Numbered from the stretch's first letter, positions 3,029 to 41,782 are shown. The stretch is DNA of 64,000 bases from Thermoleophilia bacterium (GCA_025934255.1 JAICYJ010000005.1:3876-67875), one strand, 5' to 3'. The notes: generated from the sequence alone by a model not told the origin. Numbers and translations are program-made.

Positions 3029-3673
3029 GTGGCCGCCGATCACGATCATGAGCTGACGCTGCACCCGGCCGGAGCGACGGCGATGCTGGTGCTCGGGCAC
3101 GGCGCCGGATCATCGATGACATCGCCGTTCCTGACCGGGTTCAGCGAGCAGATCGCCGAGCTAGGCGTGGCCACGCACCGCTTCGACTTCCCCTACATGC
3201 GTGCCGGTCGCCGGGCGCCCGACCGCGCGCCGGTGCTGATCGCGGCCTACCGGCAGGCGTGGTCGCGGGCGGTCGAGCTGGCGGCGGGACTGCCGGTGTT
3301 CGCCGGTGGGCGCTCGATGGGCGGTCGCATCGCGTCGATGGCGGCAGCCGAGGGCATGTCCGCCGCTGGGCTCGTGTTCCTGGCCTACCCGCTGCATCCG
3401 CCCGGCCGGCCCGAGAAGATCCGCGATCAGCACCTGTACGGCCTGCCGATGCCGATGCTGTTCCTGCAGGGAACCCGCGACAGCTTCGCGCAGCCGGCGT
3501 TGCTGGCGGGCGTGCTTGAGCGCCTCGGTTCGCGTGCCCAGCTCGTCTCGATCGAGGGCGGCGACCACTCGTTCGCCCGGGCCGGGGCCAGCCGCGACGG
3601 GCGCCGCATCGGGGCTTCGCTGGCGCCGCTCGCGGCCGCCTTCGTGGAACGGGTGGTGGCCGGCTTGGGTTGA
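3029..3673 (+). CDS. Alpha/beta hydrolase (KANL3/Tex30-like)
   Basis: LGHGAG, nucleophile GGRSMGG, GTRD, GGDHSF triad; GTG 3029 start inferred. Confidence 0.8.
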   Translation: MAADHDHELTLHPAGATAMLVLGHGAGSSMTSPFLTGFSEQIAELGVATHRFDFPYMRAGRRAPDRAPVLIAAYRQAWSRAVELAAGLPVFAGGRSMGGRIASMAAAEGMSAAGLVFLAYPLHPPGRPEKIRDQHLYGLPMPMLFLQGTRDSFAQPALLAGVLERLGSRAQLVSIEGGDHSFARAGASRDGRRIGASLAPLAAAFVERVVAGLG

Positions 3674-3718
3674 CGGCTACCCGGCGGGCGCTGCTGAGGC
3701 CTGCGGTACAGTCGCCCC

Positions 3719-5164
3719 ATGTTCAGCCTCGACACCGGCCGCGACGTGCTCACTACCGACCAGCTCGATCAGGTGCACGAGCGGGCGATGACGGTGCTCG
3801 AGGAGATCGGCACCGACGTGCGCCACCCGGCGGCGCTGGAGATGCTGGCCGGACTCGGGCAGAAGATCGACGGCGAGCGTGTCCACTGGGATCGCGAGTT
3901 CGTGATGGAGATGCTCGCCAGGGCGCCGCATGCGTTCACGCTGCGGGGTCGCAACCCCGAGCGAGCGGTGCGGCTGGGCGACTCAAAGCCGGTGCTGACG
4001 CCGGTGGGCGGCTCGCCCTTCTGCTCCGACCTCGAGCGCGGACGCCGGGACGGCACCTACGCCGACCACGTCGAGCTGATCAAGATGGCGCAGGCCGCCG
4101 ACCTGATCACGTGCAACCAGAGCGGCACCGTCGAGGCCGGCGATCTCGATGAGAACAGCCGGCACATGGACATGGACTACTCGGTGCTGCGGTACTCCGA
4201 CAAGCCGCACGTCTGTTACGGCACCTCCGGGCCGAAGGCGCGGGACGCCGTCGCCCTGGCGGCGATCGCCTGCGGCGGCCGCGAGGCGATCGAGCAGACA
4301 CCGGCGCTGATGGGGATCGTCAACCCCAACAGCCCGCTGGTCTGGGACTTCCTGATGGTGGACGCGTTGTCGGAATGGGCATCGGCAGGCCAGCCGGTGG
4401 TGATCACGCCGTTCCTGCTGGCCGGGGCGACGGCGCCGATCACGATCGCCTCCGGGCTGGTGTTGAAGGTGGCGGAGGCGCTGTCGGGCGTGGCGCTGGT
4501 GCAGGCGATCCGGCCCGGTACGCCCGCGCTGTTCGGATCGTTCTTCACGGCCGTGGACATGCGCACCGGCGGCCCCGCCTTCGGCACGCCCGAGTCGGTG
4601 CTGGGGACGCTCGCCGGCGGCCAGCTGGCACGGCGCTACGGCCTCCCCTACCGGGGTGGCGGCGGCCTCTGCTCGTCGAACTCGCTGGACATGGCGTCGG
4701 CGGCGGAGACGGCCATGACGCTGTGGGCGACGATGCTGTCCGGCTCGCACCTGGTGATGCACGCCGCGGGCTGGCTGGAGGGCGGCCTGACGGCGTCGTA
4801 CGAGAAGTTCGTGATCGACCTCGAGATGCTGCGGATGTTCGCGATGATCGACGAGGGCATCGACACCAGCGAGGAGCGGTTCGCGATCGATGCGATGCGG
4901 GAGGAGGGGCCGGGCGGGATGTTCCTGGCCGCCGACCACACGCTCGCGCACTTCCGTGAGTGGATGTTCATGAGCCCGCTGTTCCGCTCGCAGGCCTACG
5001 TGACCTGGCAGAAGCAGGGCTCCGCCACCACCGCCACGCTGGCCACGGCCGAGTGGAAGAAGCTGCTGGAAAGCTACGAGGATCCCGGCATCGACCCGGC
5101 CGTCGACGAGGAGCTGCAGGAGTACATGCAGCGGCGCAGGGCCGAGATCGAGGCGGCCCTCTGA
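3719..5164 (+). CDS. mttB: Trimethylamine methyltransferase (MttB) superfamily, non-pyrrolysine, copy 1
   Basis: LEEIG, NPNSPL, ITPFLLAGATAP, GGPAFGTPE, GLPYRGGGG, HAAGWLEGGL, YEKFVID motifs; uninterrupted ORF. Confidence 0.92.
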   Translation: MFSLDTGRDVLTTDQLDQVHERAMTVLEEIGTDVRHPAALEMLAGLGQKIDGERVHWDREFVMEMLARAPHAFTLRGRNPERAVRLGDSKPVLTPVGGSPFCSDLERGRRDGTYADHVELIKMAQAADLITCNQSGTVEAGDLDENSRHMDMDYSVLRYSDKPHVCYGTSGPKARDAVALAAIACGGREAIEQTPALMGIVNPNSPLVWDFLMVDALSEWASAGQPVVITPFLLAGATAPITIASGLVLKVAEALSGVALVQAIRPGTPALFGSFFTAVDMRTGGPAFGTPESVLGTLAGGQLARRYGLPYRGGGGLCSSNSLDMASAAETAMTLWATMLSGSHLVMHAAGWLEGGLTASYEKFVIDLEMLRMFAMIDEGIDTSEERFAIDAMREEGPGGMFLAADHTLAHFREWMFMSPLFRSQAYVTWQKQGSATTATLATAEWKKLLESYEDPGIDPAVDEELQEYMQRRRAEIEAAL

Positions 5165-7260
5165 TGGGCCGGGAGCAGCGTCACGACATCCTGTTCGAGC
5201 CGGTCCGGATCGGGCCGAAGACGCTGCGCAACCGGTTCTACCAGGTACCTCACTGCACCGGCTTCGGGGTCGAGAAGCCGTGGACGCAGGCGGCGTTCCG
5301 CGGGATGAAGGCGGAGGGCGGCTGGGCGGCGGTCTGCACCGAGTACTGCTCGATCAGCCCCGAGTCCGACGAGACGCCCTACGTGTCGGCCCGGCTCTGG
5401 GACGACGAGGACATGCGGGCGCTGCAGATGATGACCGACCGCGCGCACGAGCACGGCGCGCTGGCCGGGGTCGAGCTGTGGCACGGCGGCGTCTACGCCG
5501 AGGGCCGCGAGTCGCGGCTGCCGCAGCTGGCGCCGTCGCAGATCAGCAGCGACCTGGACAGCGTGGTGGTGCCAAAGACGATGGAGCTGGCCGACATCCG
5601 GCGAGCGCAGGGGGAGTGGGTGGCGGCCGCGAAGCGGGCACGCGGCGCCGGCTTCGACATCATCTACGTGTACGGGTCGCACACCTACCTGCCCACGCAG
5701 TTCCTGTCGCCTGTGTACAACCGGCGCAGCGACGCCTACGGCGGCAGCTTCGAGAACCGTGCGCGGTTCTGGCTGGAGGCGATCGAGCTGGTCAAGCAGG
5801 CGGTCGGCGACGATGTCGCGATCGCGGTGCGGATCGCAGCCGACACGCTGGAGCTGTCAGGGGTGCCGATCGAGGAGGGGCTCGAGTTCATCCGCGCGGC
5901 CGACCCGTTGGTCGACCTGTGGGACGTGGTGATCGGCTCGATGTGGGGGCCGGGGCGGCTCGACTCGGGCCCGTCGCGGTTCTTCGACCAGGGCTACCAG
6001 ATGACCTGGTCGGGCCGTGCTCGCGAGGCGACCGAGAAGCCGATCGTGGTGGTGGGCAGGTTCACCGACCCCGACCGGATGGCCAACCTGGTGCGGGGCG
6101 GTACCGTCGACCTGATCGGCGCGGCGCGGCCGTCGATCTCGGACCCGTTCCTGCCGGAGAAGATCGAGCAGGGCCGCTACGAGGAGATCCGGGAGTGCAT
6201 CGGCTGCAATGCCTGCTACTCGCGGTCGATCTGGGGCCGGCATCTGGGCTGCACGCAGAACGCCACCGCGGGCGAGGAGTACCGGCGCGGTTGGCATCCG
6301 GAGCGGTTCGACCGCGCCGCGAACGCCGACCGGGCGGTGCTGGTGGTGGGCGCCGGACCGGCCGGCATGGAGTGCGCCACGGTGCTCGGCAAGCGCGGCA
6401 TGGAGCTGGTGCACCTGGTGGACGAGGCCGACGACATCGGTGGCTGCATGAGCTGGATCACGCGCATGCCCGGCCTCGGGACGTGGGGCCACGTGGTCGA
6501 CTATCGCCGCGCCCAGATGGACCGGCTGGACAACGTCTCGCTGGGGCTCGGCACGCGGCTGTCGGCGGCCGACGTGCTCGACTACGGCGCCCAGATCGTG
6601 GTCGTCGCGACCGGTTCGCACTGGGCCGGCGACGGCATCAGCGGCGTCACGCGGCTGCCGATCCCCGGCGCGGATGCCACGCTGCCGCACGTGCTGACGC
6701 CGGAGCAGGTGATGGTCGACGGCAAGCGGCCGCCCGGCGGCCGGGTGGCGGTCGTCGACTACGAGGGCTACTTCGTCGGCTCGGCGCTGGCCGAGCAGCT
6801 GCGCAGCGAGGGATACGAGGTCGAGTTCGTGACCAGCCACGAGGCGGTCGCGCCCTACTGCGATCAGACGCTCGAGGGTCGGCCGGTGCGGGAGCGGCTG
6901 AACGCGATCCGGGTGCCGGTGCAGCGGGCGGTGGTGGTCGATCGGATCGACGAGGGCGGGATCGACCTGGTGGGCGAGTTCCAGGCGACGTCGCGGCTGG
7001 CGGTGGACGGCGTGGTGCTGGTCACGCAGCGGCTCTCGGACGAGGCCCTGTACGGCGAGCTGGCAGGCGACCCGGCCGCGCTCGAAGCGGCCGGGATCGA
7101 GGCGGTCTACCGGATCGGCGACTGCGTCGCGCCGCGCTTGATCGCGGACGCGATCTTCGACGGCCACCGCCTGGCGCGCGAGATCGACTCGCCCGACCCG
7201 GAGCGTCCGCTGCCCTACCTGCGCGAGCGGCCGCTGATGGCGGCAACGCCGGCCGTCTGA
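5164..7260 (+). CDS. tmd: Trimethylamine/dimethylamine dehydrogenase family iron-sulfur flavoprotein
   Basis: HDILFEPVRIGPKTLRNRFYQVPHC (flavinylated Cys), TEYC, YVYGSHTY, CIGCNAC...CTQNATAGEEYRRGWHPE, GAGPAG; ATG overlaps the upstream TGA. Confidence 0.9.
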   Translation: MGREQRHDILFEPVRIGPKTLRNRFYQVPHCTGFGVEKPWTQAAFRGMKAEGGWAAVCTEYCSISPESDETPYVSARLWDDEDMRALQMMTDRAHEHGALAGVELWHGGVYAEGRESRLPQLAPSQISSDLDSVVVPKTMELADIRRAQGEWVAAAKRARGAGFDIIYVYGSHTYLPTQFLSPVYNRRSDAYGGSFENRARFWLEAIELVKQAVGDDVAIAVRIAADTLELSGVPIEEGLEFIRAADPLVDLWDVVIGSMWGPGRLDSGPSRFFDQGYQMTWSGRAREATEKPIVVVGRFTDPDRMANLVRGGTVDLIGAARPSISDPFLPEKIEQGRYEEIRECIGCNACYSRSIWGRHLGCTQNATAGEEYRRGWHPERFDRAANADRAVLVVGAGPAGMECATVLGKRGMELVHLVDEADDIGGCMSWITRMPGLGTWGHVVDYRRAQMDRLDNVSLGLGTRLSAADVLDYGAQIVVVATGSHWAGDGISGVTRLPIPGADATLPHVLTPEQVMVDGKRPPGGRVAVVDYEGYFVGSALAEQLRSEGYEVEFVTSHEAVAPYCDQTLEGRPVRERLNAIRVPVQRAVVVDRIDEGGIDLVGEFQATSRLAVDGVVLVTQRLSDEALYGELAGDPAALEAAGIEAVYRIGDCVAPRLIADAIFDGHRLAREIDSPDPERPLPYLRERPLMAATPAV

Positions 7261-7503: not shown

Positions 7504-8319
7504 TCAGCTGGGCGTGATGCCGAGCCGGATCGTGTAGCCGATCAGCATCGGTCGCGGCTCGGGCAGCCGTTCCCGGGCGATGCGCGTGAGCGCGTCCATC
7601 GTCTCCTCCAGCTCCGGCGCGCGGCCTTCGAAGATCGCGGTCGGGCCTCCCAGCGAGTGGGCGAGGTCGGTCACCGCTTCCGCGTCGGCCGTCGTCTCGG
7701 CGTGGCAGTGCACCTCGCGCGCTAAGGCGAACAGCCCGCTCTCGCGCAGCCTGGCCACGTGCTCGCGCTTCGGCCACTGCGAGGCCCCGGCGTGGATGCC
7801 GAGCCGCTCCCGCGCCGCCCAGCGCACGTCGATCACCGCGGCGAAGGCCGCGTCGACCTGCGGCTCGATCACCGGCACGACGTCGTAGTCGTACGCGCCG
7901 AACACGCCGCCGGGACGGAGCACCCGCGCCACCTCGGGCAGCACCGCGGCCGGATCCATCCAGTGGAACGACTGCGCGCAGGTGACGATGTCGGCCGATC
8001 CGGCCTCGAGGCCGGTCGCATCGGCATAGGCCTCCACGAACGTGACGTTGGCTTCGGCGGTCGTCGCCCGCGCCCGGGCCAGCATCGCCGGATTCGCCTC
8101 GACGCCGACCACCCGCTCGGCGCGGGCCGCCCAGGCACGGCTCGAGAGCCCAGTGCCGCTGCCCAGGTCGACCACCAGCTGCGGCCGGCCGCCCGCGCAG
8201 CGTGTGAGCACGTCCAGCGCGACCGCCGGAGGACTGGGACGGGCACCGTCGTAATGGTCGGCGAACCCCTCGTTCGCGTACCCCGACCGCCCGATCAGAT
8301 CGCGCGAGAACGTGCTCAC
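7504..8319 (-). CDS. Class I SAM-dependent methyltransferase
   Basis: VVDLGSGTG motif I, VGVE, ADIVTCAQSFHW, RVLRPGG; GTG start 6 nt after TAGCAT. Confidence 0.88.
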   Translation of the reverse strand: MSTFSRDLIGRSGYANEGFADHYDGARPSPPAVALDVLTRCAGGRPQLVVDLGSGTGLSSRAWAARAERVVGVEANPAMLARARATTAEANVTFVEAYADATGLEAGSADIVTCAQSFHWMDPAAVLPEVARVLRPGGVFGAYDYDVVPVIEPQVDAAFAAVIDVRWAARERLGIHAGASQWPKREHVARLRESGLFALAREVHCHAETTADAEAVTDLAHSLGGPTAIFEGRAPELEETMDALTRIARERLPEPRPMLIGYTIRLGITPS

Positions 8320-8353
8320 ACCTCAATGCTAGACGGCCACTAGGATCCCGGTG

Positions 8354-8638
8354 ATGGCGGAGTACCGGATCACTTACTGGCGTGAGATCCCCTCGATGGT
8401 GACCGCCCGCGACGGTGCGGCCACGTCCAAGGCGGCGCTGCCCGACCGCTTCCAGGAGGCCATCGACGAGGCCGCCATGCGCCAGGGCATGGCCGGCTCC
8501 GACGCCTACCTGGAGCAGTGGCATCACGGAGCATGGGAGCCGGCGGACGGTACGCCCGACGAGCTGGTCGCCACCCTCTCGGAGCAGCTCGACAACGACT
8601 ACGACGCGGCGCGCCTGGAATCGCTGCTGGAGGTGTGA
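8354..8638 (+). CDS. Small conserved protein of the so-called 'virulence factor' (PF13769-like) family
   Basis: YWREIPSMV...LPDRFQEAIDEAAM...SDAYLEQW pattern; translationally coupled to the Hcy methyltransferase; start 8351 or 8354. Confidence 0.72.
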   Translation: MAEYRITYWREIPSMVTARDGAATSKAALPDRFQEAIDEAAMRQGMAGSDAYLEQWHHGAWEPADGTPDELVATLSEQLDNDYDAARLESLLEV

Positions 8639-9540
8639 TGGAACAGATCGCAACACTGCTGGGAGACACGCGGCCGGCGCTCAGCGACGGTGCCATCGGC
8701 ACCATGCTGCAGGCGGCCGGTCTCATGCCCGGCGCCTCCCCCGAGATCTGGAACGTCGAGCGGGCCGACGCCATGCGCGTGATCCACACCGCCTACGCCG
8801 ACGCCGGCGCGCGCCTGCTCACCACCAACACCTTCGGCGGCACCCGCCCTCGCCTGGCCCTGCACGGCCACGAGGATCGCGTGCACGAGCTGAACGAGGC
8901 CGGAGCCCGCATCGCCCGCGACGTGGCGGACGGCTGCGATGCGCTGGTGCTCGGCAGCATCGGCCCCACCGGCGACCTGATGGAGCCGCTGGGGCTGCTC
9001 AGCCACGACGACGCCGTCGACCTGTTCGCCGAGCAGGCCGGCGGCCTGGCCGCCGGCGGCGCCCACATCCTGCTGTTCGAGACGTTCAGCGACCTGGGCG
9101 AAGTGCGCGCCGGCGTCGAGGGGGCGCACCGCGCCGCACCCGACCTGCCCGTGGCCGTGACCATGACCTTCGACCTGAAGGGCCACACGATGATGGGTGT
9201 CAGCCCGTCCCAGGCGCTGGCCGAGATATCCGCGCTCGACGTCGAGCTGATCGGCGGCAACTGCGGCAGCGGGCCCGACGAGATCGAGGCCGTGATGGTG
9301 ACCATGTCCGCCGAGCGTCCGGACGGCGTGCTGCTGCTCGCTCAGAGCAACGCCGGCCTGCCGCAGCTGGTCGGCGACGAGTTCCGCTACGGCGGCACGC
9401 CGGAGGTGATGGCCGACTACGCCGTGCGCATGCAGGAGCTCGGTGTCGACGTGATCGGTTCATGCTGCGGCAGCACGCCCTCGCACACGGCCGCGATGCG
9501 CGAGGCGCTCGGCCTGCACGTCCAGACCGCGCGTGGATGA
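8638..9540 (+). CDS. Homocysteine S-methyltransferase domain protein (stand-alone MetH N-terminal/Bmt-like)
   Basis: LSDGAIGT, TTNTFG, GSIGP, LFETF, Zn ligands GGNCG and GSCCGS, SNAGLP. Confidence 0.9.
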   Translation: MEQIATLLGDTRPALSDGAIGTMLQAAGLMPGASPEIWNVERADAMRVIHTAYADAGARLLTTNTFGGTRPRLALHGHEDRVHELNEAGARIARDVADGCDALVLGSIGPTGDLMEPLGLLSHDDAVDLFAEQAGGLAAGGAHILLFETFSDLGEVRAGVEGAHRAAPDLPVAVTMTFDLKGHTMMGVSPSQALAEISALDVELIGGNCGSGPDEIEAVMVTMSAERPDGVLLLAQSNAGLPQLVGDEFRYGGTPEVMADYAVRMQELGVDVIGSCCGSTPSHTAAMREALGLHVQTARG

Positions 9541-9546
9541 TTGAAT

Positions 9547-9735
9547 CTAGCCCTCGATCGTGATCGACATGGTCGGGCACGCGTCCGCGGCCGCCTCCAC
9601 CTCGTCGCGCAGCGACTCGTCCACGGCCGCCTGGTAGCGCAGCTCCTGCGGCGACACCAGCTGGAACACCTCCGGGCACTCGATCATGCACTGCCCGTGG
9701 TGCTGGCAGGTCCGCTCGTCCACCACAACCCTCAT
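9547..9735 (-). CDS. P450-associated [3Fe-4S]-type ferredoxin
   Basis: CQHHGQC (CxxHxxC)...ACP; 62 aa; ATGA overlap with the P450 stop. Confidence 0.88.
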   Translation of the reverse strand: MRVVVDERTCQHHGQCMIECPEVFQLVSPQELRYQAAVDESLRDEVEAAADACPTMSITIEG

Positions 9736-10949
9736 CGCACGCGCTCTCGGTCGAACGCGATCGGCAGCTCCACCGGCCCCGTCAGCCCGCTCACGGGCCG
9801 CACCACCGGCTCCGCGGTGTAGCGCGGGTTCGGCATCCGGCGCGCGATCAGCGGTAGCGCCTCGCGCATGTCGATCCGTGCCAGCCAGTGCCCGATGCAG
9901 TGGTGCGCACCGCCGCCGAACCCGAAGTGGGGCGGCCGCTCGGCGGTGATGTCGAACCGCCCGTCCTCGCCCACCGCCAGCGGGTCGGTGTTGGCCGGGT
10001 ACGACAGCAGGTGCAGCGTGGTGCCCTCGGGCAGCGCCAGCCCGCCGAACTCCATGTCCTCGGTGGTGCGCCGCGTCGCCCACATCACCGTCGGGTTCCA
10101 GCGGATCAGCTCCTCGACCGCGTTCGGCGCCAGCTCCGGCCGCTCGGCCAGAAGCGCGCACTGGTCGGGGTGCTCGACGAACAGCTGCATCGCCAGCCCC
10201 AGCTGGTTCTTGGTCGTGTCCATCCCCCCGAACACGATCAGCGACACCATCGCCAGCAGCTCGATGTCCGACAGCGACCCCTGCTCGGCGTCGTGCGCCT
10301 GCACCAGGCTCGAGACGACGTCGTCGCGCGGCCGCACCCGCCGGTCGGCGATCAGCTCCTCCGACACCGCATACAGGTTCTGCAGCGCGTCCTCGATCCG
10401 GCCCTGGTGCTCGCGGATCGTGACGCCGAACGACAGCCCCAGGTCGGTCGACCATCGCGCCAGGTCGTGCCAGCGCGCCTCGTCCATGCCGATCAGCTTG
10501 CACAGCACCCGCGCAGCGTACGGCTCCGCGAACTGCGAGACGAACTCGCAGCTGCCCGCGGCCGCGTAGGCGTCGATCAGCTCGTCGGCCAGCGCCCGGA
10601 ACTCCGGGCCCATCCGCTCGATCAGCGTCCGCGAGAAGGCCGGGTTGGCCAGCTTGCGCAGCCGCCGGTGGTCGTCGCCCTCCTTGCTGAGCATGATCTC
10701 GGCCCACCATTCCGACAGCAGCCCCTGCTCGATGCCGTTCTGGGCCGGCCAGGCAAAGCTGCCCTGCCGCAGCCGCCGGTCCTTCAGAAGCGCGCTCACC
10801 TCGTCGTAGCGCAGCACCGCCAGGCCGAAGTTGGTGCGCGCCCACCAGCTCTGCTCGCGCGCCGCGGCCACGGCCGCGGACGAGGCCGAGAAGAACGGAT
10901 CCGAGATGTCGAACGACGGGACATCGGCGGTGTCGATCGAGAGCGTCAT
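9732..10949 (-). CDS. Cytochrome P450, CYP151 (PipA/MorA)-like
   Basis: FGGMDTT I-helix, EELIR, FGFGGGAHHCIG heme motif; GLAVLRY, LRQGS.AWPA.NG, FAEPYAARV, TERPPHFG-type segments recall CYP151A. Confidence 0.9.
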   Translation of the reverse strand: MTLSIDTADVPSFDISDPFFSASSAAVAAAREQSWWARTNFGLAVLRYDEVSALLKDRRLRQGSFAWPAQNGIEQGLLSEWWAEIMLSKEGDDHRRLRKLANPAFSRTLIERMGPEFRALADELIDAYAAAGSCEFVSQFAEPYAARVLCKLIGMDEARWHDLARWSTDLGLSFGVTIREHQGRIEDALQNLYAVSEELIADRRVRPRDDVVSSLVQAHDAEQGSLSDIELLAMVSLIVFGGMDTTKNQLGLAMQLFVEHPDQCALLAERPELAPNAVEELIRWNPTVMWATRRTTEDMEFGGLALPEGTTLHLLSYPANTDPLAVGEDGRFDITAERPPHFGFGGGAHHCIGHWLARIDMREALPLIARRMPNPRYTAEPVVRPVSGLTGPVELPIAFDRERVR

Positions 10950-10965
10950 GCCCCGGGATTCTGCC

Positions 10966-12405
10966 TCAGTCGCCAAGCTCTTTCCGGCGCCGGGTGACGT
11001 AGTCGGCCAGCTCCTGGCGCAGCTCCGGGTTGATCGCAGGCGGCTCGTACTGCTCCAGCCGCTCGCGCCAGATCTCGCCGGCCCGCGCGGTCGCGTCGTG
11101 CTCGCCCAGCCGCTTCCAGCGCTCGAAGTTCTCCGTCGACGACAGCAGCGGCCGGTAGAAGCAGTCGCGGAACCGCTCCAGCGTGTGCGCCGCGCCCAGG
11201 AAGTGCCCACCCGGGCCGACCTCCTCGTGCGCCCCGAATGCGAGCGAGGCCTCGTCCACCTCGAGCGGGGTGAACTCGACCTTCAGCATCCGCAGCACCT
11301 CGACGTCGACGATGAACTTCTCGTAGCACGAGACCAGGCCCGACTCCAGCCAGCCGGCCGAGTGCATGACCCAGTTGGTGCCGGCCAGGAAGGTCGGGAT
11401 CATGGTCATGCAGGCCTCGTAGGCCGACTGCGCGTCGACCGTCTGGCTGGACGTGAAGCCGCCGCCCGACCGCCACGGCAGCCCGAAGTGACGCGCGATC
11501 TGGCCGGTGCAGAACAGGCCGGTGGCCGACTCCGGCGTGCCGAAGCTGGGCGACCCCGACTGCATGTCGGTGTTCGAGAGGAACGACCCGAAGATCACCG
11601 GCGCGCCCGGCCGCAGCAGCTGCGCCAGCGCGATCCCCGCCAGCGCCTCGGCCATCTGCTGGACGAGCGCCGCCGGGATCGTCACGGGCGACATCGCCCC
11701 CATCAGCAGGAACGGCGTGATCACGACCGGCTGGCCGGCGCGCACGTACTCGAACATGGCCGCCAGCATGCGGTCGTCGTAGCGCAGGGGCGAATTGACG
11801 TTGATCAGCGCGATCACGCCCGGCGTGCGCTCGATCGACTCGCGGCCGCCGAGCAGCATCTCGGTCATGCGCAGCGAGTCGGCCGCATTGGGCCCTGAAG
11901 TGACGGATCCCATGTAGGGCTTGTCGGTCAGGGTCTGCAGCGCGAACACCATGTCCAGGTGGCGGGAGTCGAGCGGCCGGTCGTTGGGCTCGCAGATGGT
12001 GCCGCCGGCCGAGTCGAGCTCGTCGAAGGACTGGGACAGCATGGTGAACCGCTCGAAGTCCTGCATCGTGGCGTCGCGGCGGACGTCGCCCTCGCGCACG
12101 AACGGCGGCCCGTAGACCGACGCGAATGCCATGTGATCGCCGCCGATGTGGATGCTGTGCTCCGGGTTGCGGGCCTGCACGTCGAACTCGTGCGGCGCCT
12201 TCGCCACCTGCTCGAGCACGAAGTCGGGGTCGAGGAAGACCTTGTCGCCGTCGGTCTTCTGGCCGGCCTGGGCGAACACCTCGACCGCCTCCGGCAGGAT
12301 GAACTCGACGCCGATCTCCGAGACGATCCGCCGCCAGCCCGCATCCAGGGTGACGATCGCCTGCTCTGACAGAATCTCGTAGCGCGGCATCCGGTTGACG
12401 AACAT
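10966..12405 (-). CDS. mttB: MttB superfamily methyltransferase, non-pyrrolysine, copy 2
   Basis: NVNSPL, ITPFLLMGAMSP, SGSPSFGTPE, GLPWRSGGG, HSAGWLESGL, YEKF; GAGAGG RBS before ATG 12405. Confidence 0.92.
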   Translation of the reverse strand: MFVNRMPRYEILSEQAIVTLDAGWRRIVSEIGVEFILPEAVEVFAQAGQKTDGDKVFLDPDFVLEQVAKAPHEFDVQARNPEHSIHIGGDHMAFASVYGPPFVREGDVRRDATMQDFERFTMLSQSFDELDSAGGTICEPNDRPLDSRHLDMVFALQTLTDKPYMGSVTSGPNAADSLRMTEMLLGGRESIERTPGVIALINVNSPLRYDDRMLAAMFEYVRAGQPVVITPFLLMGAMSPVTIPAALVQQMAEALAGIALAQLLRPGAPVIFGSFLSNTDMQSGSPSFGTPESATGLFCTGQIARHFGLPWRSGGGFTSSQTVDAQSAYEACMTMIPTFLAGTNWVMHSAGWLESGLVSCYEKFIVDVEVLRMLKVEFTPLEVDEASLAFGAHEEVGPGGHFLGAAHTLERFRDCFYRPLLSSTENFERWKRLGEHDATARAGEIWRERLEQYEPPAINPELRQELADYVTRRRKELGD

Positions 12406-12417
12406 TCGTCCTCTCCC

Positions 12418-12451
12418 TAAGATCTTAATATGTGGAACGATCGTTCCACAT
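12418..12451. promoter_or_regulatory. Divergent promoter with perfect 22-bp palindrome (candidate IclR operator)
   Basis: ATGTGGAACGATCGTTCCACAT (12430-12451) is a perfect palindrome; TAAGATCTTA (12418-12427) gives a TAAGAT -10 on both strands. Confidence 0.7.
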
Positions 12452-13232
12452 GATGAGTCGAAAAGCAATGACCGGAACCCAGGCGATCGATCGTGCCGCC
12501 CAGCTGCTCGTCCTCGTCGTCGAGAACGAGTCGTCGAGCAGCGTCGGCGAGCTGGCCGAGGCGGCCGGACTTCCCAAGAGCACCGTATCGCGCGCAGTGT
12601 CGGCGCTCGAGCGGCAGGGCCTGGTGCAGCGAAGCAGCGCCCGCGGCAGCATCCGTCCGGGGCCGGTGCTGCTGGGCCTGGCCCGGCGCGGCGTCGGCGA
12701 GCAGGACATCGCCGAGCTGTGCCGCGAGGCGCTCGAAAACCTGGCCGACGCCACCGGCGAGACCGTCGACCTGGCGGTCGCCGTGCCCGGCGGCTCCGAG
12801 CAGTACATCGCCCAGGTCGACAGCCGCCACATCCTGGGCACCACCAACTGGGTGGGACGGCGCCTGCCCCACCACTGCACCGCGGTCGGCAAGGTGCTGG
12901 TCGCGTTCGGCGCGGCGCGCCTGCAGCGGGGCGCGCTGGAGCGGCTCACGCCGGACACCATCACCGATCGCGACACGCTGTCGGCAGAACTGGATACGGT
13001 GCGGGCATGCGGATATGCGACCGCCGTGGGCGAGCTGGAGCCGGGCTTGGTGGCCGTTGCGGCGCCGGTGCTTGACGCCGACGGCCGGGCGGTGGCAGCG
13101 ATCAGCATCTCGGGGCCGCAGTTCCGGATACCGAGCGATCGGCTGGACGGGTTTGGCAAACTCCTGACGAAGGAGACGGAAACGCTTTCGGCGCGCCTGG
13201 GATACCGGCCGGCCGGGGAGGGAGCAGCATGA
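12450..13232 (+). CDS. IclR family transcriptional regulator
   Basis: QAIDRAAQLL HTH, GLPKSTVSR, GETVDL, LPHHCTAVGK, ELEPGLVAVAAPV, AISISGP. Confidence 0.9.
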   Translation: MMSRKAMTGTQAIDRAAQLLVLVVENESSSSVGELAEAAGLPKSTVSRAVSALERQGLVQRSSARGSIRPGPVLLGLARRGVGEQDIAELCREALENLADATGETVDLAVAVPGGSEQYIAQVDSRHILGTTNWVGRRLPHHCTAVGKVLVAFGAARLQRGALERLTPDTITDRDTLSAELDTVRACGYATAVGELEPGLVAVAAPVLDADGRAVAAISISGPQFRIPSDRLDGFGKLLTKETETLSARLGYRPAGEGAA

Positions 13233-13897
13233 CCACCGACGAGATCCTGCAAGGCCTGTTCGACAACACGCTGATCGGAAACGCGCCGGCCGTCAAGGAC
13301 CTCACCAACGAGGGCCTGGCCATGGGCATGGACCCCGAGACGCTGCTCTACGACGCCCTGATCCCGTCGCTGGAGGAGGTGGGCGCCCGCTTCGAGCGCG
13401 GCGACTTCTTCGTCCCGGAGATGCTGATTGCCGCGCGGGCAATGCAGGGCGCGCTGGACATCCTGCGCCCACTGCTGGCAGAGACCGGCGCCAAGCCGAT
13501 CGGCACGTTCGTGATGGGCACCGTCAAGGGCGACGTGCACGACATCGGCAAGAACCTGGTCAACATCATGCTCGAGGGCGCCGGCTTCACCGTCTACGAC
13601 CTGGGCGTGAACGTGGCGCCTGAGAAGTTCGTGGAGCAGGTGCAGGAGCACGAGCCGGACATCGTCGGCTTCTCGGCCTTCCTGACCACCACCATGCCGA
13701 TGTTCAAAGCCAACATCAACGCGCTCGAGAAGTCGGGCCTGCGCGACCGCGTGATCGTGATGGTGGGCGGCGCGCCGGTGACCCAGGAGTACGCCGACGC
13801 GGTCGGCGCCGACGGCTACGCCGCCGACGCGTCCACCGCGGTGCGCCTCGCCAAGGCCCTGATCGAGAACCGCCGATCGGCGGCTGCGCCGGCATGA
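13229..13897 (+). CDS. Cobalamin-binding corrinoid protein (MttC/MtgC/MetH cap plus B12 domain)
   Basis: FERGDFFVPEM cap; GTVKGDVHDIGKN (DxHxxG), DLGVNV, SAFLTTTM, VGGAPV. Confidence 0.93.
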   Translation: MTTDEILQGLFDNTLIGNAPAVKDLTNEGLAMGMDPETLLYDALIPSLEEVGARFERGDFFVPEMLIAARAMQGALDILRPLLAETGAKPIGTFVMGTVKGDVHDIGKNLVNIMLEGAGFTVYDLGVNVAPEKFVEQVQEHEPDIVGFSAFLTTTMPMFKANINALEKSGLRDRVIVMVGGAPVTQEYADAVGADGYAADASTAVRLAKALIENRRSAAAPA

Positions 13898-14775
13898 CCC
13901 AGGCCGTCTCCGACCGGTTGCGGTCGCTGGCCGCCACGGCCAGCATCGAGGTGACGCCGCGCCACGCGGCCGCCGTGACCGAGCTCGACGGCGTGTTGCC
14001 CGCCGGGACATCGGTCTACATCACGGCGCTTCCCGGAGCCGACCCGTTCGACCTGGTGACGGCTGCCGCGACCATCCGCGCCGCCGGCCACGTGCCGGTG
14101 CCGCACCTGACGGCGCGCGCCATCGCCGGCGACGAGGCGCTGGATGCGCTGCTCTCGCAGCTCCGCGAGCGCGCCGTGGTCGACGACGTGCTCGTGATCG
14201 CGGGCGGAGGGGCGACCGTCGTCGGCGACTACCACAGCTCCATGGACGTGCTGCGGTCGGGCCTGCTGGAGCGGCACGGCATCATTCGCGCCGGCGTCGC
14301 CGGGCACCCCGAGGGCAGCCCCGACATCTCACCCGAAGCGATCCTCGAGGCCCTGGTCGAGAAGAACGCCTTTGCCGCCGCATCGGCGATCGAGCTTCGC
14401 ATCGTCAGCCAGTTCGCGCTGGCCGCCGAGCCCTACGTGGCGTGGGAGCGCGGGCTGCGCGAGGCGGGAAACCGGCTGCCGGTGGTGGCAGGCATCCCCG
14501 GCGTGACCTCGCCTCCGTCGCTGCTCAAGTTCGCGCTGGCCTGTGGCATCGGCCCCTCCGTGGAGGTGCTCCGCAAGCAGTCGGGCGGGTTGCTGAAGCT
14601 GGCAACGACCCGGCTGTGGCGGCCCGACCAGCTGGCCGAGGGCATCGCCCGGTCGACCGTCGACGATCCCGGCAGCCTGATCCAGGGGCTGCACCTGTTC
14701 CCCTTCGGCGGGGTCGAGCGGTCGGCCCGATGGCTGGCCGAGATGCGCACCGCGCCGGCCGCGGTGTCGGCATGA
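13894..14775 (+). CDS. metF: Methylenetetrahydrofolate reductase family protein
   Basis: SIEVTP, VYITAL, VPHLTAR, VAGHPEG, IVSQF, GLHLFPFGG. Confidence 0.78.
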   Translation: MTQAVSDRLRSLAATASIEVTPRHAAAVTELDGVLPAGTSVYITALPGADPFDLVTAAATIRAAGHVPVPHLTARAIAGDEALDALLSQLRERAVVDDVLVIAGGGATVVGDYHSSMDVLRSGLLERHGIIRAGVAGHPEGSPDISPEAILEALVEKNAFAAASAIELRIVSQFALAAEPYVAWERGLREAGNRLPVVAGIPGVTSPPSLLKFALACGIGPSVEVLRKQSGGLLKLATTRLWRPDQLAEGIARSTVDDPGSLIQGLHLFPFGGVERSARWLAEMRTAPAAVSA

Positions 14776-14793
14776 GAGCCGAAAGGACGCGGA

Positions 14794-15666
14794 ATGCAGA
14801 CCACCATTGAGTCGCGGTCACGCACGGTCGTGATCGGGGACGGCGCGCCGTTCTGCGTGATCGGCGAGCGCATCAACCCCACAGGCCGAAAGGCGTTCCA
14901 GGCGCAGCTGCAGGCCGGCGACCTGTCCCAGCTCGAGATCGACGTGGCCGAGCAGGTGGCCGGCGGCGCCGACGTGCTGGACGTCAACGTGGGCGATCCG
15001 CTGGCCGACGAGATCGAGCTGATGCGGGCGGCCGTGCCGATGGTGCAGGGCCTGACCGACCTGCCGCTGTGCATCGACTCCTCCATCATCGAGGCGCTCG
15101 AGGCCGGCCTGGGAGCCTACGAGGGAAAGGCGCTGGTCAACTCGGTCACCGGCGAGGACGAGCGGCTGAACCTGATCCTGCCGATCGTGGCCCGCCACGG
15201 TGCTGCGGTGATCGGCCTCGCCAACGATGACGAGATCCCGATGGAGCCGGAGCGGCGGCTGGAGGTGGCCCGCAAGATCGTCTCGGTCGCCGGCGACCAC
15301 GGCATCCCGCCGCAGGACGTCGTGATCGATCCGCTGGCGATGCCGGTCGGCGCCGAGCCGCGCGCGGTCACGCTGTTCCTGGAGACGGTGCGGCTGATCC
15401 GCGACAACCTGGGCGTGAACATGACCTGCGGCGCCAGCAACACCTCGTTCGGGCTGCCCGGCCGCCACGCCCTGGGCGCCGCCTTCCTGGCCGTCTCGCA
15501 GAGCCACGGGCTGACCAGCGCCATCATGGACGCGCGCGCCCGCGAGTGCGTCGAGTCGGTGCGAGCCACCGACTTCCTGCTCGGCCAGGACGAGTGGGGC
15601 GCCCGCTGGATCGCCGCGCACCGGGCCAAGCTGGCCGCCCAGGCCGCGCAGGCCGCGACAAGCTAG
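14794..15666 (+). CDS. Pterin-binding methyltetrahydrofolate:corrinoid methyltransferase (MetH pterin domain/AcsE-like)
   Basis: VIGERINPTG, LDVNVG, LCIDSS, LVNSV, IDPL, CGASNTSFGLP. Confidence 0.88.
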   Translation: MQTTIESRSRTVVIGDGAPFCVIGERINPTGRKAFQAQLQAGDLSQLEIDVAEQVAGGADVLDVNVGDPLADEIELMRAAVPMVQGLTDLPLCIDSSIIEALEAGLGAYEGKALVNSVTGEDERLNLILPIVARHGAAVIGLANDDEIPMEPERRLEVARKIVSVAGDHGIPPQDVVIDPLAMPVGAEPRAVTLFLETVRLIRDNLGVNMTCGASNTSFGLPGRHALGAAFLAVSQSHGLTSAIMDARARECVESVRATDFLLGQDEWGARWIAAHRAKLAAQAAQAATS

Positions 15667-15668
15667 CC

Positions 15669-17528
15669 GTGTCGGTGAACGCCGAGACGATCGAGCCAGG
15701 CACCGGCCGCGTCCGGCTGACGTTCGCGCCCGACGGCGGCGAGGTGCGCGTGCCGGCCGGCACCACCGTGTTCGACGGGGCCAGCTGGAACGGCATCGCC
15801 ATCGACTCGACCTGCGGCGGCCACGGCACCTGCAAGAAGTGCAAGGTGCGGATCACCGACGGCGATGTGCCGGTCGACACGCTGGATCCGCGCGCCTTCA
15901 GCCCCGACGAGCTGCGCGGCGGCTGGCGGCTGGCCTGCCGCGCGATCGCCACCCACGACCTCGCCGTCGAGGTGCCGCCGCTGCAGACCCGCCCCAAGGC
16001 GGCGCTGGTCGGCGTCGGCCGCCACGTGATCCTGCGCCCGTCCGTGCAGAAGCGCTACCTGGAGCTGAAGGAGCCGTCGCTGGAGGACCAGGCGTCCGAC
16101 ATGGAGCGCGTGGTCCATGCCGTCGAGGACTTCGAGCTGCGGGTGGAGCTGGGCGCCGCTCGCGGCATCGGCCGCACCCTGCGGTCGTCCGACTTCAAGG
16201 TCACTGCCGTCATCTGCGACGACGTGCTGATCGACGTCGAGCCCGGTGACACCACCGAGCGGCGCCACGCGATCGCCTTCGACCTGGGCACGACCACGGT
16301 GGTGGCGACGCTGCTCGACCTCGCCACCGGCCAGCCGCTGGCCGTGCGCTCGATGCTGAACCGCCAGCAGCCGTTCGGCGCCGACGTGATCTCGCGCGTG
16401 TCGGCCACGATGATGGACCCGGACGCGCTGGAGATGCTGCAGCAGCGGGCGCATGAGACGATGAACGGCCTCGCCGGCGAGGTCTGCGAGGAGGCCGGCC
16501 TGTCACCGGCGGAGGTGTACGAGATCGTGGTCTGCGGCAACGTCACGATGATGCAGCTGGCGCTGGGCATCGACCCCGAGCCGCTGGGCATGTCGCCGTT
16601 CATCATCACCGCCCGGCGGCTGCCGCCGGCGGTTGCCTCCGACTTCGGCGTGCGCGTGCACCCGCGCGCGCCGGCCGCCGTGTTTCCCGCTCTGGGCGCC
16701 TACGTGGGCGGAGACATCGTGGCCGGCATGCTCGCCACCGGCCTCACCCGCGACCGCCGCGTGCGCCTGTTCATCGACGTCGGCACCAACTCCGAGATCG
16801 CACTCGGTTCCAGCGAGCGGGTGGTCGCGACCGCCGCACCGGCCGGCCCCGCCTTCGAGGCCGCCCAGATCCGCTGCGGCATGCGCGCCGCTGAGGGCGC
16901 GATCGAGGGCGTCGCGATCAGCGGCGAGGAGATGACGCTGGAGGTGATCGGCGACGCCGCGCCGGTCGGCATGTGCGGCTCCGGGCTGGTGGATGCGGTC
17001 GCCCAGCTGGTGTCGGCGGGCCTGCTCGACCACTCCGGCCGCTTCATCCCCGACGAGGACGCCGCCGAGCTGCACCCGCAGCTGAGCACGCGGCTGGTGA
17101 AGGTGGGCGAGGAGCGGGTGTTCGTGCTGGCATGGCGCGGAGACGACCCAGCGAACGCGATCTACCTGTCGCAGCGCGACGTGCGCGAGCTGCAGTTCGC
17201 CAAGGCCTCGATCGCGACCGGATGGCGGATATTGATCAAGGAGCTCGGCCTGGACGAGGACGAGATCACCCAGGTGCTGCTGGCCGGCAGCTTCGGCAGC
17301 TACCTCTCGCCGGCCAGCGCCGTGCGCATCGGCCTGGTGCCGAAGCTGGCGCTGCCGCGCATCATCTCGGCCGGGAACGTGGCCGGCGAGGGCGCCAAGA
17401 TGGCGGCGCTGTCGCTGCGGGAGCGGGCGGCAGCCGACGCCATCCTGGATGAGGTCGAGTACGTGGAGCTGTCCGGGCGGGCAGACTTCAACGACATGTT
17501 CATGGACGAGCTGGCGTTCCCGGGATGA
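15669..17528 (+). CDS. ASKHA (DUF4445/RACo/RamA-like) ATP-dependent corrinoid reductive activase with N-terminal 2Fe-2S
   Basis: CGGHGTCKKC...RLAC; FDLGTTT, FGADVISR, DVGTNSE, AGPAFE, GMCGSG, DVRELQFAK, LAGSFG. Confidence 0.9.
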   Translation: MSVNAETIEPGTGRVRLTFAPDGGEVRVPAGTTVFDGASWNGIAIDSTCGGHGTCKKCKVRITDGDVPVDTLDPRAFSPDELRGGWRLACRAIATHDLAVEVPPLQTRPKAALVGVGRHVILRPSVQKRYLELKEPSLEDQASDMERVVHAVEDFELRVELGAARGIGRTLRSSDFKVTAVICDDVLIDVEPGDTTERRHAIAFDLGTTTVVATLLDLATGQPLAVRSMLNRQQPFGADVISRVSATMMDPDALEMLQQRAHETMNGLAGEVCEEAGLSPAEVYEIVVCGNVTMMQLALGIDPEPLGMSPFIITARRLPPAVASDFGVRVHPRAPAAVFPALGAYVGGDIVAGMLATGLTRDRRVRLFIDVGTNSEIALGSSERVVATAAPAGPAFEAAQIRCGMRAAEGAIEGVAISGEEMTLEVIGDAAPVGMCGSGLVDAVAQLVSAGLLDHSGRFIPDEDAAELHPQLSTRLVKVGEERVFVLAWRGDDPANAIYLSQRDVRELQFAKASIATGWRILIKELGLDEDEITQVLLAGSFGSYLSPASAVRIGLVPKLALPRIISAGNVAGEGAKMAALSLRERAAADAILDEVEYVELSGRADFNDMFMDELAFPG

Positions 17529-18103
17529 CGACGGCCGTGATCGCATGCGGCGCGCTCGCCTTGCACGTGAACGCCATCGCCGAGCGGCGCGGCTGGGAGA
17601 TCGACGTGCACCCGCTGCCGCCCGAGCTGCACAACCGCCCGGAGCAGATCGCGCCCGCCGTCGGCCGTCTGCTGGACGAGCTGGCCTGCCGCTACCAGCG
17701 CGTGGCGGTCGCCTACGCCGACTGTGGCAGCTACGGCGCGCTCGACCAGGAGCTCCGCCGGCGCGGCGTCGAGCGGCTGGAGGGCGACCACTGCTACGAC
17801 GTGTTCGCGAAGCCGGAGGTGGCGGAGGCGATGGCCGAGCAGCCCGGCACCTACTTCCTGACCGATTTCCTGGCGCGCACCTTCGACCGCACGGTCTGGC
17901 GGTCGCTCGGCCTCGACCGCCATCCCGAGCTGCGCGACGACTACTTCCACTCCTACACCCGCGTCATCTGGCTGGCGCAGCGGCGCACGCCCGAGCTGCT
18001 GGAGCTGGCCGAGCGGGTGGCGGCCATGCTGGGGCTGCCGCTGGAGGTGCGCGACGTGGGCGAGTCGGGGCTGGAGGCACAGCTGGAGCGGCTGGCGGGA
18101 TGA
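17525..18103 (+). CDS. DUF1638 domain protein
   Basis: VIACGAL, LHNRPE, AYADCGS, DHCY, YFLTDF pattern; coupled to RACo. Confidence 0.78.
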   Translation: MTTAVIACGALALHVNAIAERRGWEIDVHPLPPELHNRPEQIAPAVGRLLDELACRYQRVAVAYADCGSYGALDQELRRRGVERLEGDHCYDVFAKPEVAEAMAEQPGTYFLTDFLARTFDRTVWRSLGLDRHPELRDDYFHSYTRVIWLAQRRTPELLELAERVAAMLGLPLEVRDVGESGLEAQLERLAG

Positions 18104-23564: not shown

Positions 23565-24325
23565 GTCACCAGCCCCGCCCGGCGCAGCACCTCGACGACG
23601 GCCGGAGCAGCTTCGGGCCCGTGGCCCAGGATCTCCGCCTGCTTGCCCTGTCCGGGCGGCAGCCGCAGCCGCAGCTTCTCGACGCCCGCGTCGCGGCGCT
23701 CCGGAGCGCTCGCGGCCAGGGGCTTGCGCTTGGCCCGCAGGCGGCCCGGCACCGATGGGTAGCGGGGCAGGTTGAGGCCCTCCTTGACGGTGATCACCGC
23801 CGGCAGCGGCACGTCGTAGACGTCGCGGCCGGAGGCCGTCTCCTGCTCGCAGCGGGCGCGGCCGTCCTGCACCGTGATGCCCTTGACGCCGGTCACGCAG
23901 GGCCGCCCCAGGGCGTGGGCGACGCGGATGCCGACCTGGTAGTTGCCCGAGTCGGCGGACTCGTTGCCGAAGAAGATCAGGTCGAACTCGACGCCCGCCG
24001 CCCGCTCGGCCTCGATCGCGGCGACGATCGCCGCGGCCGTGGCCTGGCCGTCGACCTCGTCCGCCGTCTCGAGCAGGATCGCGCGGTCGACGCCCAGCGC
24101 CATCGCGTCGCGCAGCTGCTCCTCGGCCTCGGACGGGCCCAGCGCCAGCACCACCGACTCGCCGCCGTTCGCTTCGATCAGCCGCACCGCCTCCTCGACG
24201 CCGCACTCCTCATGGGGGCTGATGGTGAAGCCGAGGTGGCGCGTCTGGATCGACTGCTCGTCCTCTGTCAGCACGATCGTGCCGCCCGTCATCGGCACCC
24301 GCTTGGCGCAGACGAGGATGTTCAC
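23561..24325 (-). CDS. etfB: Electron transfer flavoprotein beta subunit
   Basis: ILVCAKRVP, VEEAVRL, ALGVDRA, DLIFFGNESADSG, PRYPS. Confidence 0.92.
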   Translation of the reverse strand: MNILVCAKRVPMTGGTIVLTEDEQSIQTRHLGFTISPHEECGVEEAVRLIEANGGESVVLALGPSEAEEQLRDAMALGVDRAILLETADEVDGQATAAAIVAAIEAERAAGVEFDLIFFGNESADSGNYQVGIRVAHALGRPCVTGVKGITVQDGRARCEQETASGRDVYDVPLPAVITVKEGLNLPRYPSVPGRLRAKRKPLAASAPERRDAGVEKLRLRLPPGQGKQAEILGHGPEAAPAVVEVLRRAGLVT

Positions 24326-41770: not shown

Positions 41771-41782
41771 ACGACACGCGCA

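Follow-up and report, generated by a model that had tools for sequence, protein, structure and literature searches.

What does a relative of trimethylamine dehydrogenase (TMADH) do when its gene is joined, base on base, to a gene for an MttB-type methyltransferase? The question is raised by a stretch of 64,000 nucleotides from a Thermoleophilia bacterium (GCA_025934255.1 JAICYJ010000005.1:3876-67875; hereafter the window, ~71% GC), in which the gene mttB1 runs directly into that of a 698-residue flavoprotein. Non-pyrrolysine MttB proteins are among the commonest 'methylamine' annotations in soil and sediment, and both their substrates and the fate of the resulting tertiary amines in aerobes are mostly obscure; mttB was annotated in 17% of the metagenome-assembled genomes (MAGs) of one survey (PMC11264602). 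An earlier note on this DNA, made from the sequence alone, had called the flavoprotein a true TMADH-clade enzyme outside methylotrophic Proteobacteria and had suggested that oxidative and methyl-transfer routes are co-expressed. We find that the flavoprotein stands on the TMADH side of its family, in a clade of its own that is strictly coupled to MttB and marked by an arginine in a substrate loop. On balance, we favour the view that mttB1 and the TMADH-like gene (3719-7260) make up an autonomous module with translational coupling, which would remove two methyl groups successively from an acidic betaine.

A TMADH-family flavoprotein joined to MttB1

The flavoprotein is encoded by an uninterrupted open reading frame (ORF) that starts with the ATG at 5164-5166, about 11 nt after a GAGG sequence, and its first residues, MGREQRHDILFEP..., agree with the N-termini of its homologues. 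The A of the mttB1 stop codon (TGA, 5162-5164) is also the first base of this ATG, which gives a one-base TGATG overlap. The ORF limits and the overlap given in the earlier note are read directly in the sequence, and all the motifs quoted there were found again: HDILFEPVRIGPKTLRNRFYQVPHC (residues 7-31), TQNATAGEEYRRGWHPE, TEYC (59-62), YVYGSH (168-173), SMWG (259-262), and SRSIWG (353-358).

Pfam recognizes Oxidored_FMN (10-340), Pyr_redox_2, and OYE-like_second_a-b, in other words, an FMN barrel of OYE type and, after it, two domains of nucleotide-binding type, which is the full-length architecture of the TMADH family sensu lato. In a phmmer search against the PDB, residues 3-689 align to residues 2-710 of Methylophilus TMADH (1djn) with 734 bits, as against 540 (6de6), 515 (3k30), and 512 bits (6l6j) on the side of the histamine dehydrogenases (HADHs). 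Identity is 51.5% to TMADH and ~42% to the HADHs. The AlphaFold model (mean pLDDT 78.6) likewise finds TMADH as its best Foldseek match (2tmd, TM 0.87); the HADHs and 6l6j, listed there as 6-hydroxypseudooxynicotine amine oxidase, follow at TM 0.84-0.85. No NCBIfam equivalog was hit, the top model being mycofactocin OYE_2 at 411 bits against a cut-off of 793, and an exact-sequence look-up of the 698-residue protein returned no record.

The active-site residues tell the same story. Cys30, Tyr60, Ser74, Trp105, Tyr169, His172, Tyr174, Arg222, and Asp267 of TMADH all have equivalents (C31, Y61, S75, W106, Y170/H173/D267, Y175, and R223 in the numbering of the window protein), among them the tyrosine of TEYC and the tyrosine and histidine of YVYGSH that had been singled out before. 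The cysteine for the 6-S-cysteinyl FMN bond (C31) and the Y170/H173/D267 triad are kept across the whole clade, and the [4Fe-4S] cysteines C345, C348, C351, and C363 correspond to C345, C348, C351, and C364 of TMADH. Judged by these residues, the catalytic machinery for amine oxidation is complete. The scores, the fold match, the identities, and the residues together show that the core of the earlier proposal, a protein that is TMADH-like and not HADH-like, was correct.

Substrate loops and phylogeny set the protein apart from TMADH

In TMADH structures, the aromatic bowl formed by Tyr60, Trp264, and Trp355 receives the trimethylammonium head group. Only the first of the three persists in the window protein, as Y61; the positions of W264 and W355 are gone through insertions and deletions in the loops. 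The 260s loop of the MttB-linked clade is one residue longer than that of TMADH and follows the pattern G[SA]xxGxxR-[LVI]-D[SA]G[PA]SR, whereas its 350s loop is short by one residue, with the pattern CYSR[SA][IV][WFY]GxH[LV]GC or, in a subgroup, CYA[LT]ANRG[RG]HLGC. The TMADH-signature loops, GDIAEW264GEDAGPSR and CISRW355EIGGPPMIC, are by contrast nearly letter-identical from Methylophilus to actinobacterial proteins; all sequences with this signature retain GDIAEWGEDAGPSR and CISRWEIGGPPMIC, both of which the window protein lacks.

The tryptophan of SMWG, previously put forward as the equivalent of Trp264, does not hold that place: W261 sits two to three positions off W264 in the longer loop and is unconserved, being replaced by Q, G, A, S, or V in orthologues of 64-76% identity and retained only in the closest subclade (at least 79% identity). 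Close to W355, the clade carries a W, F, or Y two positions later (the unconserved W357 in the window protein), and class C has no aromatic residue there at all. The change around Trp355 (SRSIWG) had been correctly spotted, and the suggestion of a substrate bulkier than trimethylamine (TMA) agrees with the remodelling of the loops: the loss of two tryptophan walls would make room for a group larger than methyl.

What is constant in these loops is Arg265, directly before Leu266-Asp267. It is invariant in every MttB-linked sequence, aligned class C included, and absent from relatives that are not linked to MttB; a regular expression for the Arg265 loop recovered 91 of the 120 best matches. Two further positions differ from TMADH. 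Val344 and Tyr442, the docking residues in the complex of TMADH with electron-transferring flavoprotein (ETF; 1o94), are replaced by E344 and H443 in the window protein and by E plus H or R throughout the clade, a pattern that resembles HADH-type proteins. In the 4Fe-4S motif, the second cysteine is a serine (CIGSNAC or CTGSNVC) in three independent homologues, L016 (about 10001-12076), L014, and P0091 (L and P numbers denote homologous loci), which may signify altered cluster ligation.

Neighbour-joining trees (100 and 200 bootstraps) were built from 80 species-representative loci, plasmid-borne proteobacterial homologues, and PDB sequences; the dimethylamine dehydrogenase of Hyphomicrobium X was not in the collections searched, and several representatives of 50% clusters that appear chimeric or frameshifted were left out of the conclusions. 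One superclade, with 100% bootstrap support, unites TMADH with the window protein; the HADH and 6-hydroxypseudooxynicotine enzymes fall outside it. Within it, the MttB-linked sequences are monophyletic in 99% of 200 bootstraps (99-100% over both trees) and form a Gaiellales/Thermoleophilia clade, separate from, and on the sister side of, the clade with the W3A1 TMADH signature, which itself has 96% support (96-98% over both trees). Of the label 'true TMADH-clade enzyme', then, the placement beside TMADH and away from HADH holds, and the membership does not, for the protein lies in a distinct clade that has lost the TMADH loops. By its loops and its position in the trees, the window protein is not a canonical TMADH.

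The W3A1 clade comprises proteobacterial homologues together with the actinobacterial loci L022-L025, L029, L049, and L073 (Solirubrobacteraceae, Acidimicrobiales, and Gaiellales; match at about 10001-12130 in most). These come from the same phylum as the window, some of them from the same order, and their products are 54-57% identical to the window protein; they differ from it in having both TMADH loops exactly, 58-60% identity to W3A1 TMADH, and ETF and CCG-type Fe-S oxidoreductase genes 3' of the dehydrogenase gene. These proteins, and not that of the window, are likely to be genuine orthologues of TMADH beyond Proteobacteria. Of the earlier claim, the host outside Proteobacteria is borne out, as it is actinobacterial and the closest matches are Gaiellales MAGs; the exact TMADH loops belong to other Actinomycetota proteins. 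In L022-L024 and L049, Asp267 is replaced by Asn. Plasmid-borne matches in S. meliloti pSymA, Ralstonia, and Leisingera, considered as StcD or DgcA, turned out to be HADH-like or without assigned function.

Linkage, coupling, and transcription

An MttB gene lies directly 5' on the same strand in 10/10 clade members with readable context (the window, L001, L002, L007, L008, L016, L090, L091, L092, and L093), and none was found within 10 kb of other superclade members among more than 50 examined. A further 13 contigs of matching length in the match lists of MttB1 and the flavoprotein suggest additional linked pairs. In all seven linked loci whose junctions were examined, the genes overlap or are at most 3 nt apart, by different solutions (TGATG, TAGATG, GTGA, TAGTG, a 14-nt overlap, and a 3-nt gap). 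The two proteins also diverge together, MttB identities of 75, 66, 74, 77, and 56% corresponding to partner identities of 75, 66, 74, 75, and 64%. In L007, rpsA on one side and uvrB/uvrA on the other flank the pair, and further metabolic genes are absent nearby, so that the two genes behave like a module complete in itself.

The proteins nearest to the flavoprotein (94-64% identity) belong to MAGs of Gaiellales and further Thermoleophilia or stem from soil metagenomes; JGI's automatic naming calls many of them 'dimethylamine/trimethylamine dehydrogenase'. At least 20 soil metagenome runs, drawn from at least 11 studies, contain nearly identical DNA, and four soil metatranscriptomes contribute contigs, ~95-97% identical, that extend over the two genes. 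The junction itself is crossed by three of them (4769-5198, 4759-5234, and 4966-5246), and coverage falls outside ~3650-7250, which supports a bicistronic transcript of mttB1 and the TMADH-like gene.

Beyond the pair, the neighbourhoods vary, and a comparison of the ten linked loci found no accessory gene common to them. L002 is the only locus with adjacent ETF genes (alpha and beta); in L002, L090, and L091, the pair has DAO or Sox genes close by. Pro_racemase, SoxABD-like genes, and creatinase in L002, an MR_MLE enolase beside a second MttB in L092, and an aromatic ammonia-lyase, DAO, and a SAM methyltransferase in L091 are hints to the substrate that conflict, pointing variously to proline/hydroxyproline betaine, glycine betaine/sarcosine, and histidine betaine. 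An aminotransferase gene beside the sister-clade locus L003, considered as a context clue, is not conserved.

Some of these loci deserve a separate remark. In L092 (2090-8409; a relative at 82% identity), the second MttB, 54% identical to MttB2 of the window, lies just 5' of the linked pair with the MR/MLE enolase-superfamily gene, a GMC oxidoreductase, and an amino-acid permease as neighbours; the enolase could be a betaine epimerase of HpbD type. In L091, an SBP_bac_5 transporter lies 5' of the pair, and the genes 3' of it (7656-12301) include, besides those named above, a short MetE-like (Meth_synt_2) gene; a second such gene, 40% identical, lies near the pair of L016 (1728-2792), and this was the only shared item in the comparison of the ten loci. 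MttB genes also accompany distantly related TMADH-family genes in clades of Pseudomonadota and delta-proteobacterial MAGs: one lies directly 3' in L074 (4563-5999), with Gly at the Tyr97 position, and three paralogues lie 3' in L065 (12140-18734).

The partner methyltransferase

MttB1 matches PF06253 over its full length (E 6e-168). With this full-length TIM-barrel domain and no in-frame stop or UAG, it belongs to the non-pyrrolysine MttB superfamily; against the PDB it scores 385 bits with S. meliloti 4yyc and 347 bits with D. hafniense MtgB, compared with 123 bits for the pyrrolysine enzyme 7xcl. In MtgB, glycine betaine is held at its carboxylate by Arg312 and His348 and at its cation by Tyr97 and Phe356; Arg312 is conserved in all characterized members, all of which use acidic quaternary amines, and TMA is not a substrate of MtgB, such non-pyrrolysine enzymes acting on quaternary amines (PMC13080624).

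MttB1 shares the fold of MtgB (9yce/2qne; PMC13080624), but its glycine-betaine motif Y97/R312/H348/F356 is incomplete: R312 and H348 are kept and the cation-π pair Y97/F356 is replaced by Gly at both positions, in MttB1 as in 20/20 orthologues checked, within the signatures P-x-GG-[SA]-PF and HAAGWLE-x-GL. Since the acid-binding residues remain and the aromatic ones are lost, MttB1 is most likely a methyltransferase for an acidic betaine other than, or besides, glycine betaine. The suggestion that oxidative and methyl-transfer routes are co-expressed is upheld insofar as the coupling is conserved and RNA-derived contigs span the junction; parallel routes for one substrate are unlikely, because MttB1 is a non-pyrrolysine enzyme with R312/H348, and such enzymes use quaternary amines rather than TMA. 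As MttB yields a tertiary amine and TMADH-family enzymes oxidize tertiary amines, the pair would rather perform consecutive demethylations.

Proposed mechanism and its alternatives

In the mechanism that we propose, MttB1 would take one N-methyl group from the betaine and load it onto the corrinoid protein in its Co(I) form (MtgC at 13229), MtgD would pass the methyl group to tetrahydrofolate, and RACo would keep the cobalt reduced. The product would be a tertiary amine that still bears the acid group. The flavoprotein would take up this amine, with Arg265 and the remodelled loops replacing the Trp264/Trp355 walls and pairing with the carboxylate; Arg265 occurs only where MttB is linked and is a plausible partner for this carboxylate, which the MttB1 substrate would have to bear. 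An N-methyl group would then be oxidized at the 6-S-cysteinyl-FMN, giving formaldehyde and a secondary amine, and the [4Fe-4S] cluster would relay the electrons to ETF, from which a membrane Fe-S oxidoreductase would receive them. Lastly, the remaining methyl group would be removed by a DAO/GCV_T or Sox-type enzyme encoded nearby. N-methylproline, N-methylhydroxyproline, dimethylglycine, N,N-dimethylhistidine, and 4-dimethylaminobutyrate are candidates for the tertiary amine. A more specific form of this mechanism, in which a hybrid cobalamin/flavin module of a kind not described before serves a non-glycine betaine (e.g., proline/hydroxyproline betaine or hercynine), with the two enzymes perhaps in a complex that hands over the tertiary amine directly, is advanced tentatively, as a possibility with somewhat less than an even chance.

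Several observations weigh against successive demethylation. The model is poorest where it matters, with pLDDT ~52 at residues 261-270 and below 50 at 345-374, both active-site loops. The closest subclade, window included, keeps one Trp in each of these loops, which may permit cation-π binding of a small amine. The heterogeneous neighbourhoods do not indicate a single betaine, and most loci have no adjacent corrinoid protein or ETF, for which reason these partners are assumed to act in trans. As to transcription, DNA may contaminate the contigs from RNA runs, and their depth reflects expression poorly.

Three other explanations were weighed. An unlikely one is that the flavoprotein breaks a C-N bond to something other than methyl (deamination or dealkylation, as in HADH or 6-hydroxypseudooxynicotine dehydrogenase) in a compound that MttB1 does not make, the linkage reflecting a shared pathway or regulon. 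Such enzymes exist in the family (3k30, 6de6, and 6l6j, at 512-540 bits), E344 and R/H442 are HADH-like, and the sister actinobacterial clades have varied contexts, such as the aminotransferase beside L003; but the HADH-type residues Q/E60, E74, and A105 are absent, those of TMADH type, Y60/S74/W105, being present instead, and a 10/10 linkage with translational coupling and co-evolution exceeds an association at regulon level.

Slightly less likely still is a genuine dehydrogenase of TMA or dimethylamine, to which MttB1 would supply TMA (e.g., from tetramethylammonium) or be functionally unrelated. The separate clade, the bowl loops of different length and sequence, and the substitution of V344 and Y442 by E and H/R all speak against it, even though TMADH is the top-scoring characterized relative, Y60, S74, W105, and the catalytic triad are retained, and JGI names the homologues accordingly; the Trp in each loop of the window's subclade, which would also fit, is unconserved in MttB-linked orthologues. 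TMADH-signature genes, moreover, have ETF and Fe-S oxidoreductase genes 3' and never MttB, and MttB1 retains the acid-binding R312/H348. The tetramethylammonium methyltransferase known so far is a non-pyrrolysine MtmB homologue and not an MttB homologue (PMC13044021).

That the flavoprotein is a non-catabolic redox partner of MttB1, supplying for example the electrons that maintain Co(I) in the corrinoid when oxygen is present, is very improbable, for although it has flavin and Fe-S cofactors, is constantly paired with a corrinoid-dependent methyltransferase, and stands in most loci without an adjoining corrinoid activator, its amine-oxidation site is fully conserved (covalent-FMN Cys, Y/H/D triad, Y60/W105), the window has a dedicated RACo activator, and no TMADH-family member is known to act as a corrinoid redox helper.

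Other genes of the window

The features discussed here are collected in Table 1. For successive demethylation of a betaine, MttB1 probably borrows the shared corrinoid machinery of the window, whose corrinoid protein is the likely methyl acceptor common to MttB1 and MttB2. The latter keeps Y97, R312, and H348, like S. meliloti 4yyc, and is the better candidate for a glycine-betaine MtgB of the two. On the oxidative side, the window ETF is a candidate electron acceptor and the Fe-S oxidoreductase its likely re-oxidase; they are encoded 13-16 kb from the flavoprotein gene, and the oxidoreductase is 31% identical over 692 residues to the (Fe-S)-binding protein adjoining the TMADH of Azoarcus. The DAO-GCV_T enzyme is a candidate for the next, secondary-amine demethylase. 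The alcohol dehydrogenase is a possible formaldehyde sink; its NCBIfam scores of 301, 258, and 257 bits (NDMA-dependent alcohol dehydrogenase, class III alcohol dehydrogenase, and mycothiol-dependent formaldehyde dehydrogenase) all lie below the cut-offs.

Table 1 Features of the window in order of position (paired genes and their motifs, followed by corrinoid and electron-transfer genes)
Feature	Position	Strand	Basis and remarks
mttB1	3719-5164	+	481 aa; non-pyrrolysine MttB-superfamily methyltransferase, proposed step 1; PF06253
TGATG stop/start overlap of mttB1 and the TMADH-like gene	5162-5166	+	direct sequence reading
TMADH-family FMN/[4Fe-4S]/ADP-type three-domain amine dehydrogenase	5164-7260	+	698 aa; proposed step 2; Pfam, phmmer, model, trees
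260s substrate loop GSMWGPGRLDSGPSRF (residues 258-273)	5935-5982	+	hallmark Arg265 before Asp267
4Fe-4S motif and 350s loop, C345-IG-C348-NA-C351-YSRSIWGRHLG-C363	6196-6252	+	four Cys conserved
mttB2, non-pyrrolysine MttB paralogue	10966-12468	-	PF06253, E 3.5e-184; 43% identical to MttB1
Corrinoid protein (MtgC-like)	13229-13897	+	Pfam B12-binding, B12-binding_2; NCBIfam MtgC 209 bits, below cut-off
Methyl-corrinoid:tetrahydrofolate methyltransferase (MtgD-like)	14794-15666	+	Pfam Pterin_bind; NCBIfam PRK07535 294 bits, above cut-off
RACo/RamA-type corrinoid reductive activator	15546-17528	+	Pfam RACo_C_ter, Raco_middle, RACo_linker, Fer2
Class-III-type Zn alcohol dehydrogenase	18106-19230	+	Pfam ADH_N, ADH_zinc_N; 3' of corrinoid-system genes
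Fe-S (CCG-domain) oxidoreductase	20632-22548	-	Pfam CCG, Fer4; type found 3' of proteobacterial TMADH genes
ETF beta (24331-23699) and ETF alpha (23561-22629)	22629-24331	-	tblastn with L002/L004 ETF subunits; Pfam ETF
DAO + GCV_T dehydrogenase (dimethylglycine/sarcosine dehydrogenase type)	24322-26910	-	Pfam DAO, FAO_M, GCV_T, GCV_T_C
N-methyl-L-tryptophan oxidase/monomeric sarcosine oxidase-type gene	36176-37462	+	NCBIfam PRK11259 310 bits, above cut-off; further secondary-amine demethylase

In the region 8333-18103 of this soil Gaiellales genome, the gene set of an aerobic glycine-betaine/split-methionine-synthase system of MtgB/C/D/E type is complete. It is the MtgBCD(E)/split-MetH glycine-betaine system known from marine Proteobacteria (Mausz et al. 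2025; PMC12478193), with MttB2, MtgC, a MetF2-like protein, MtgD, RamA/RACo, a DUF1638 protein, and a BHMT-like MtgE, and contains in addition a PF13769 protein and an IclR gene. Directly 3' of mttB2 lies a cytochrome P450 gene (9732-10965, minus strand), whose start is uncertain because its stop-to-stop ORF overlaps that of mttB2. Farther along, a very hydrophobic ORF of 731 residues rich in Ala, Leu, and Val (37879-40074, minus strand; no Pfam match) probably encodes a multi-pass membrane protein and lies in a region whose AT skew (0.30) is unusually high. An Opp/Dpp-type ABC transporter (SBP_bac_5, permease, ATPase; 40043-44834) occupies the only lower-GC part of the window (0.66-0.68).

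Relation to known systems and significance

TMADH of Methylophilus methylotrophus W3A1 (EC 1.5.8.2; 2tmd/1djn) agrees with the window protein in its three domains, catalytic residues, CxxCxxC...C motif, and GxGxxG third domain. It differs in its Trp264 loop, where the window protein has a loop longer by one residue with the invariant Arg, and in its Trp355 loop, which in the window is shorter by one with that position lost. The genes differ in context as well: that of the window follows MttB, whereas Fe-S oxidoreductase and ETF genes lie directly 3' of TMADH in Azoarcus, Paracoccus, Methylophaga, and Methylotenera and in the actinobacterial TMADH-signature loci. The HADHs (N. simplex 3k30, Rhizobium 6de6) and 6l6j share the three-domain fold, the cofactor motifs, and ~42% identity; their Q/E60, E/D74, and A105 stand against Y, S, and W in the window protein, and they lie on the outgroup side of a 100% split.

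The closest functional analogy to the second step is HpbA/StcD, a TMADH-family N-methyl-L-proline demethylase that acts after betaine demethylation on a carboxylated tertiary amine and has an adjacent ETF; it is a precedent for the handling of such amines by this family. The likeness is functional only. The annotated hpbA of Paracoccus pantotrophus pPAN2 encodes a protein 28% identical to that of the window, with loops too remote to align confidently, and orthology was rejected. In the Hpb and Stc pathways, it is an oxygenase, and not MttB with a corrinoid, that takes off the first methyl group. Nor is the coupling of MttB1 to a TMADH-family gene part of the described MtgBCD(E) system, and the literature searched yielded no paper linking MttB with a TMADH-family partner. 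The family, its chemistry, and the MtgBCDE neighbourhood are already known; the new element is a separate subfamily that occurs strictly coupled to MttB, has a diagnostic Arg loop, and is both abundant and transcribed in soils.

For the reading of metagenomes, Arg265 with the CYSR or CYA loops, and P-x-GG-S/A-PF in MttB, are signatures that separate this subfamily from real TMADH. Genes named automatically as 'trimethylamine methyltransferase' and 'dimethylamine/trimethylamine dehydrogenase' are here probably no indicator of TMA turnover. An MttB and TMADH-like module in Gaiellales would offer a concrete route for the second demethylation of betaines. If the hybrid-module reading is true, the abundance of Gaiellales in soil would make the module a widespread route by which betaines of plants and microbes are used without the formation of trimethylamine.

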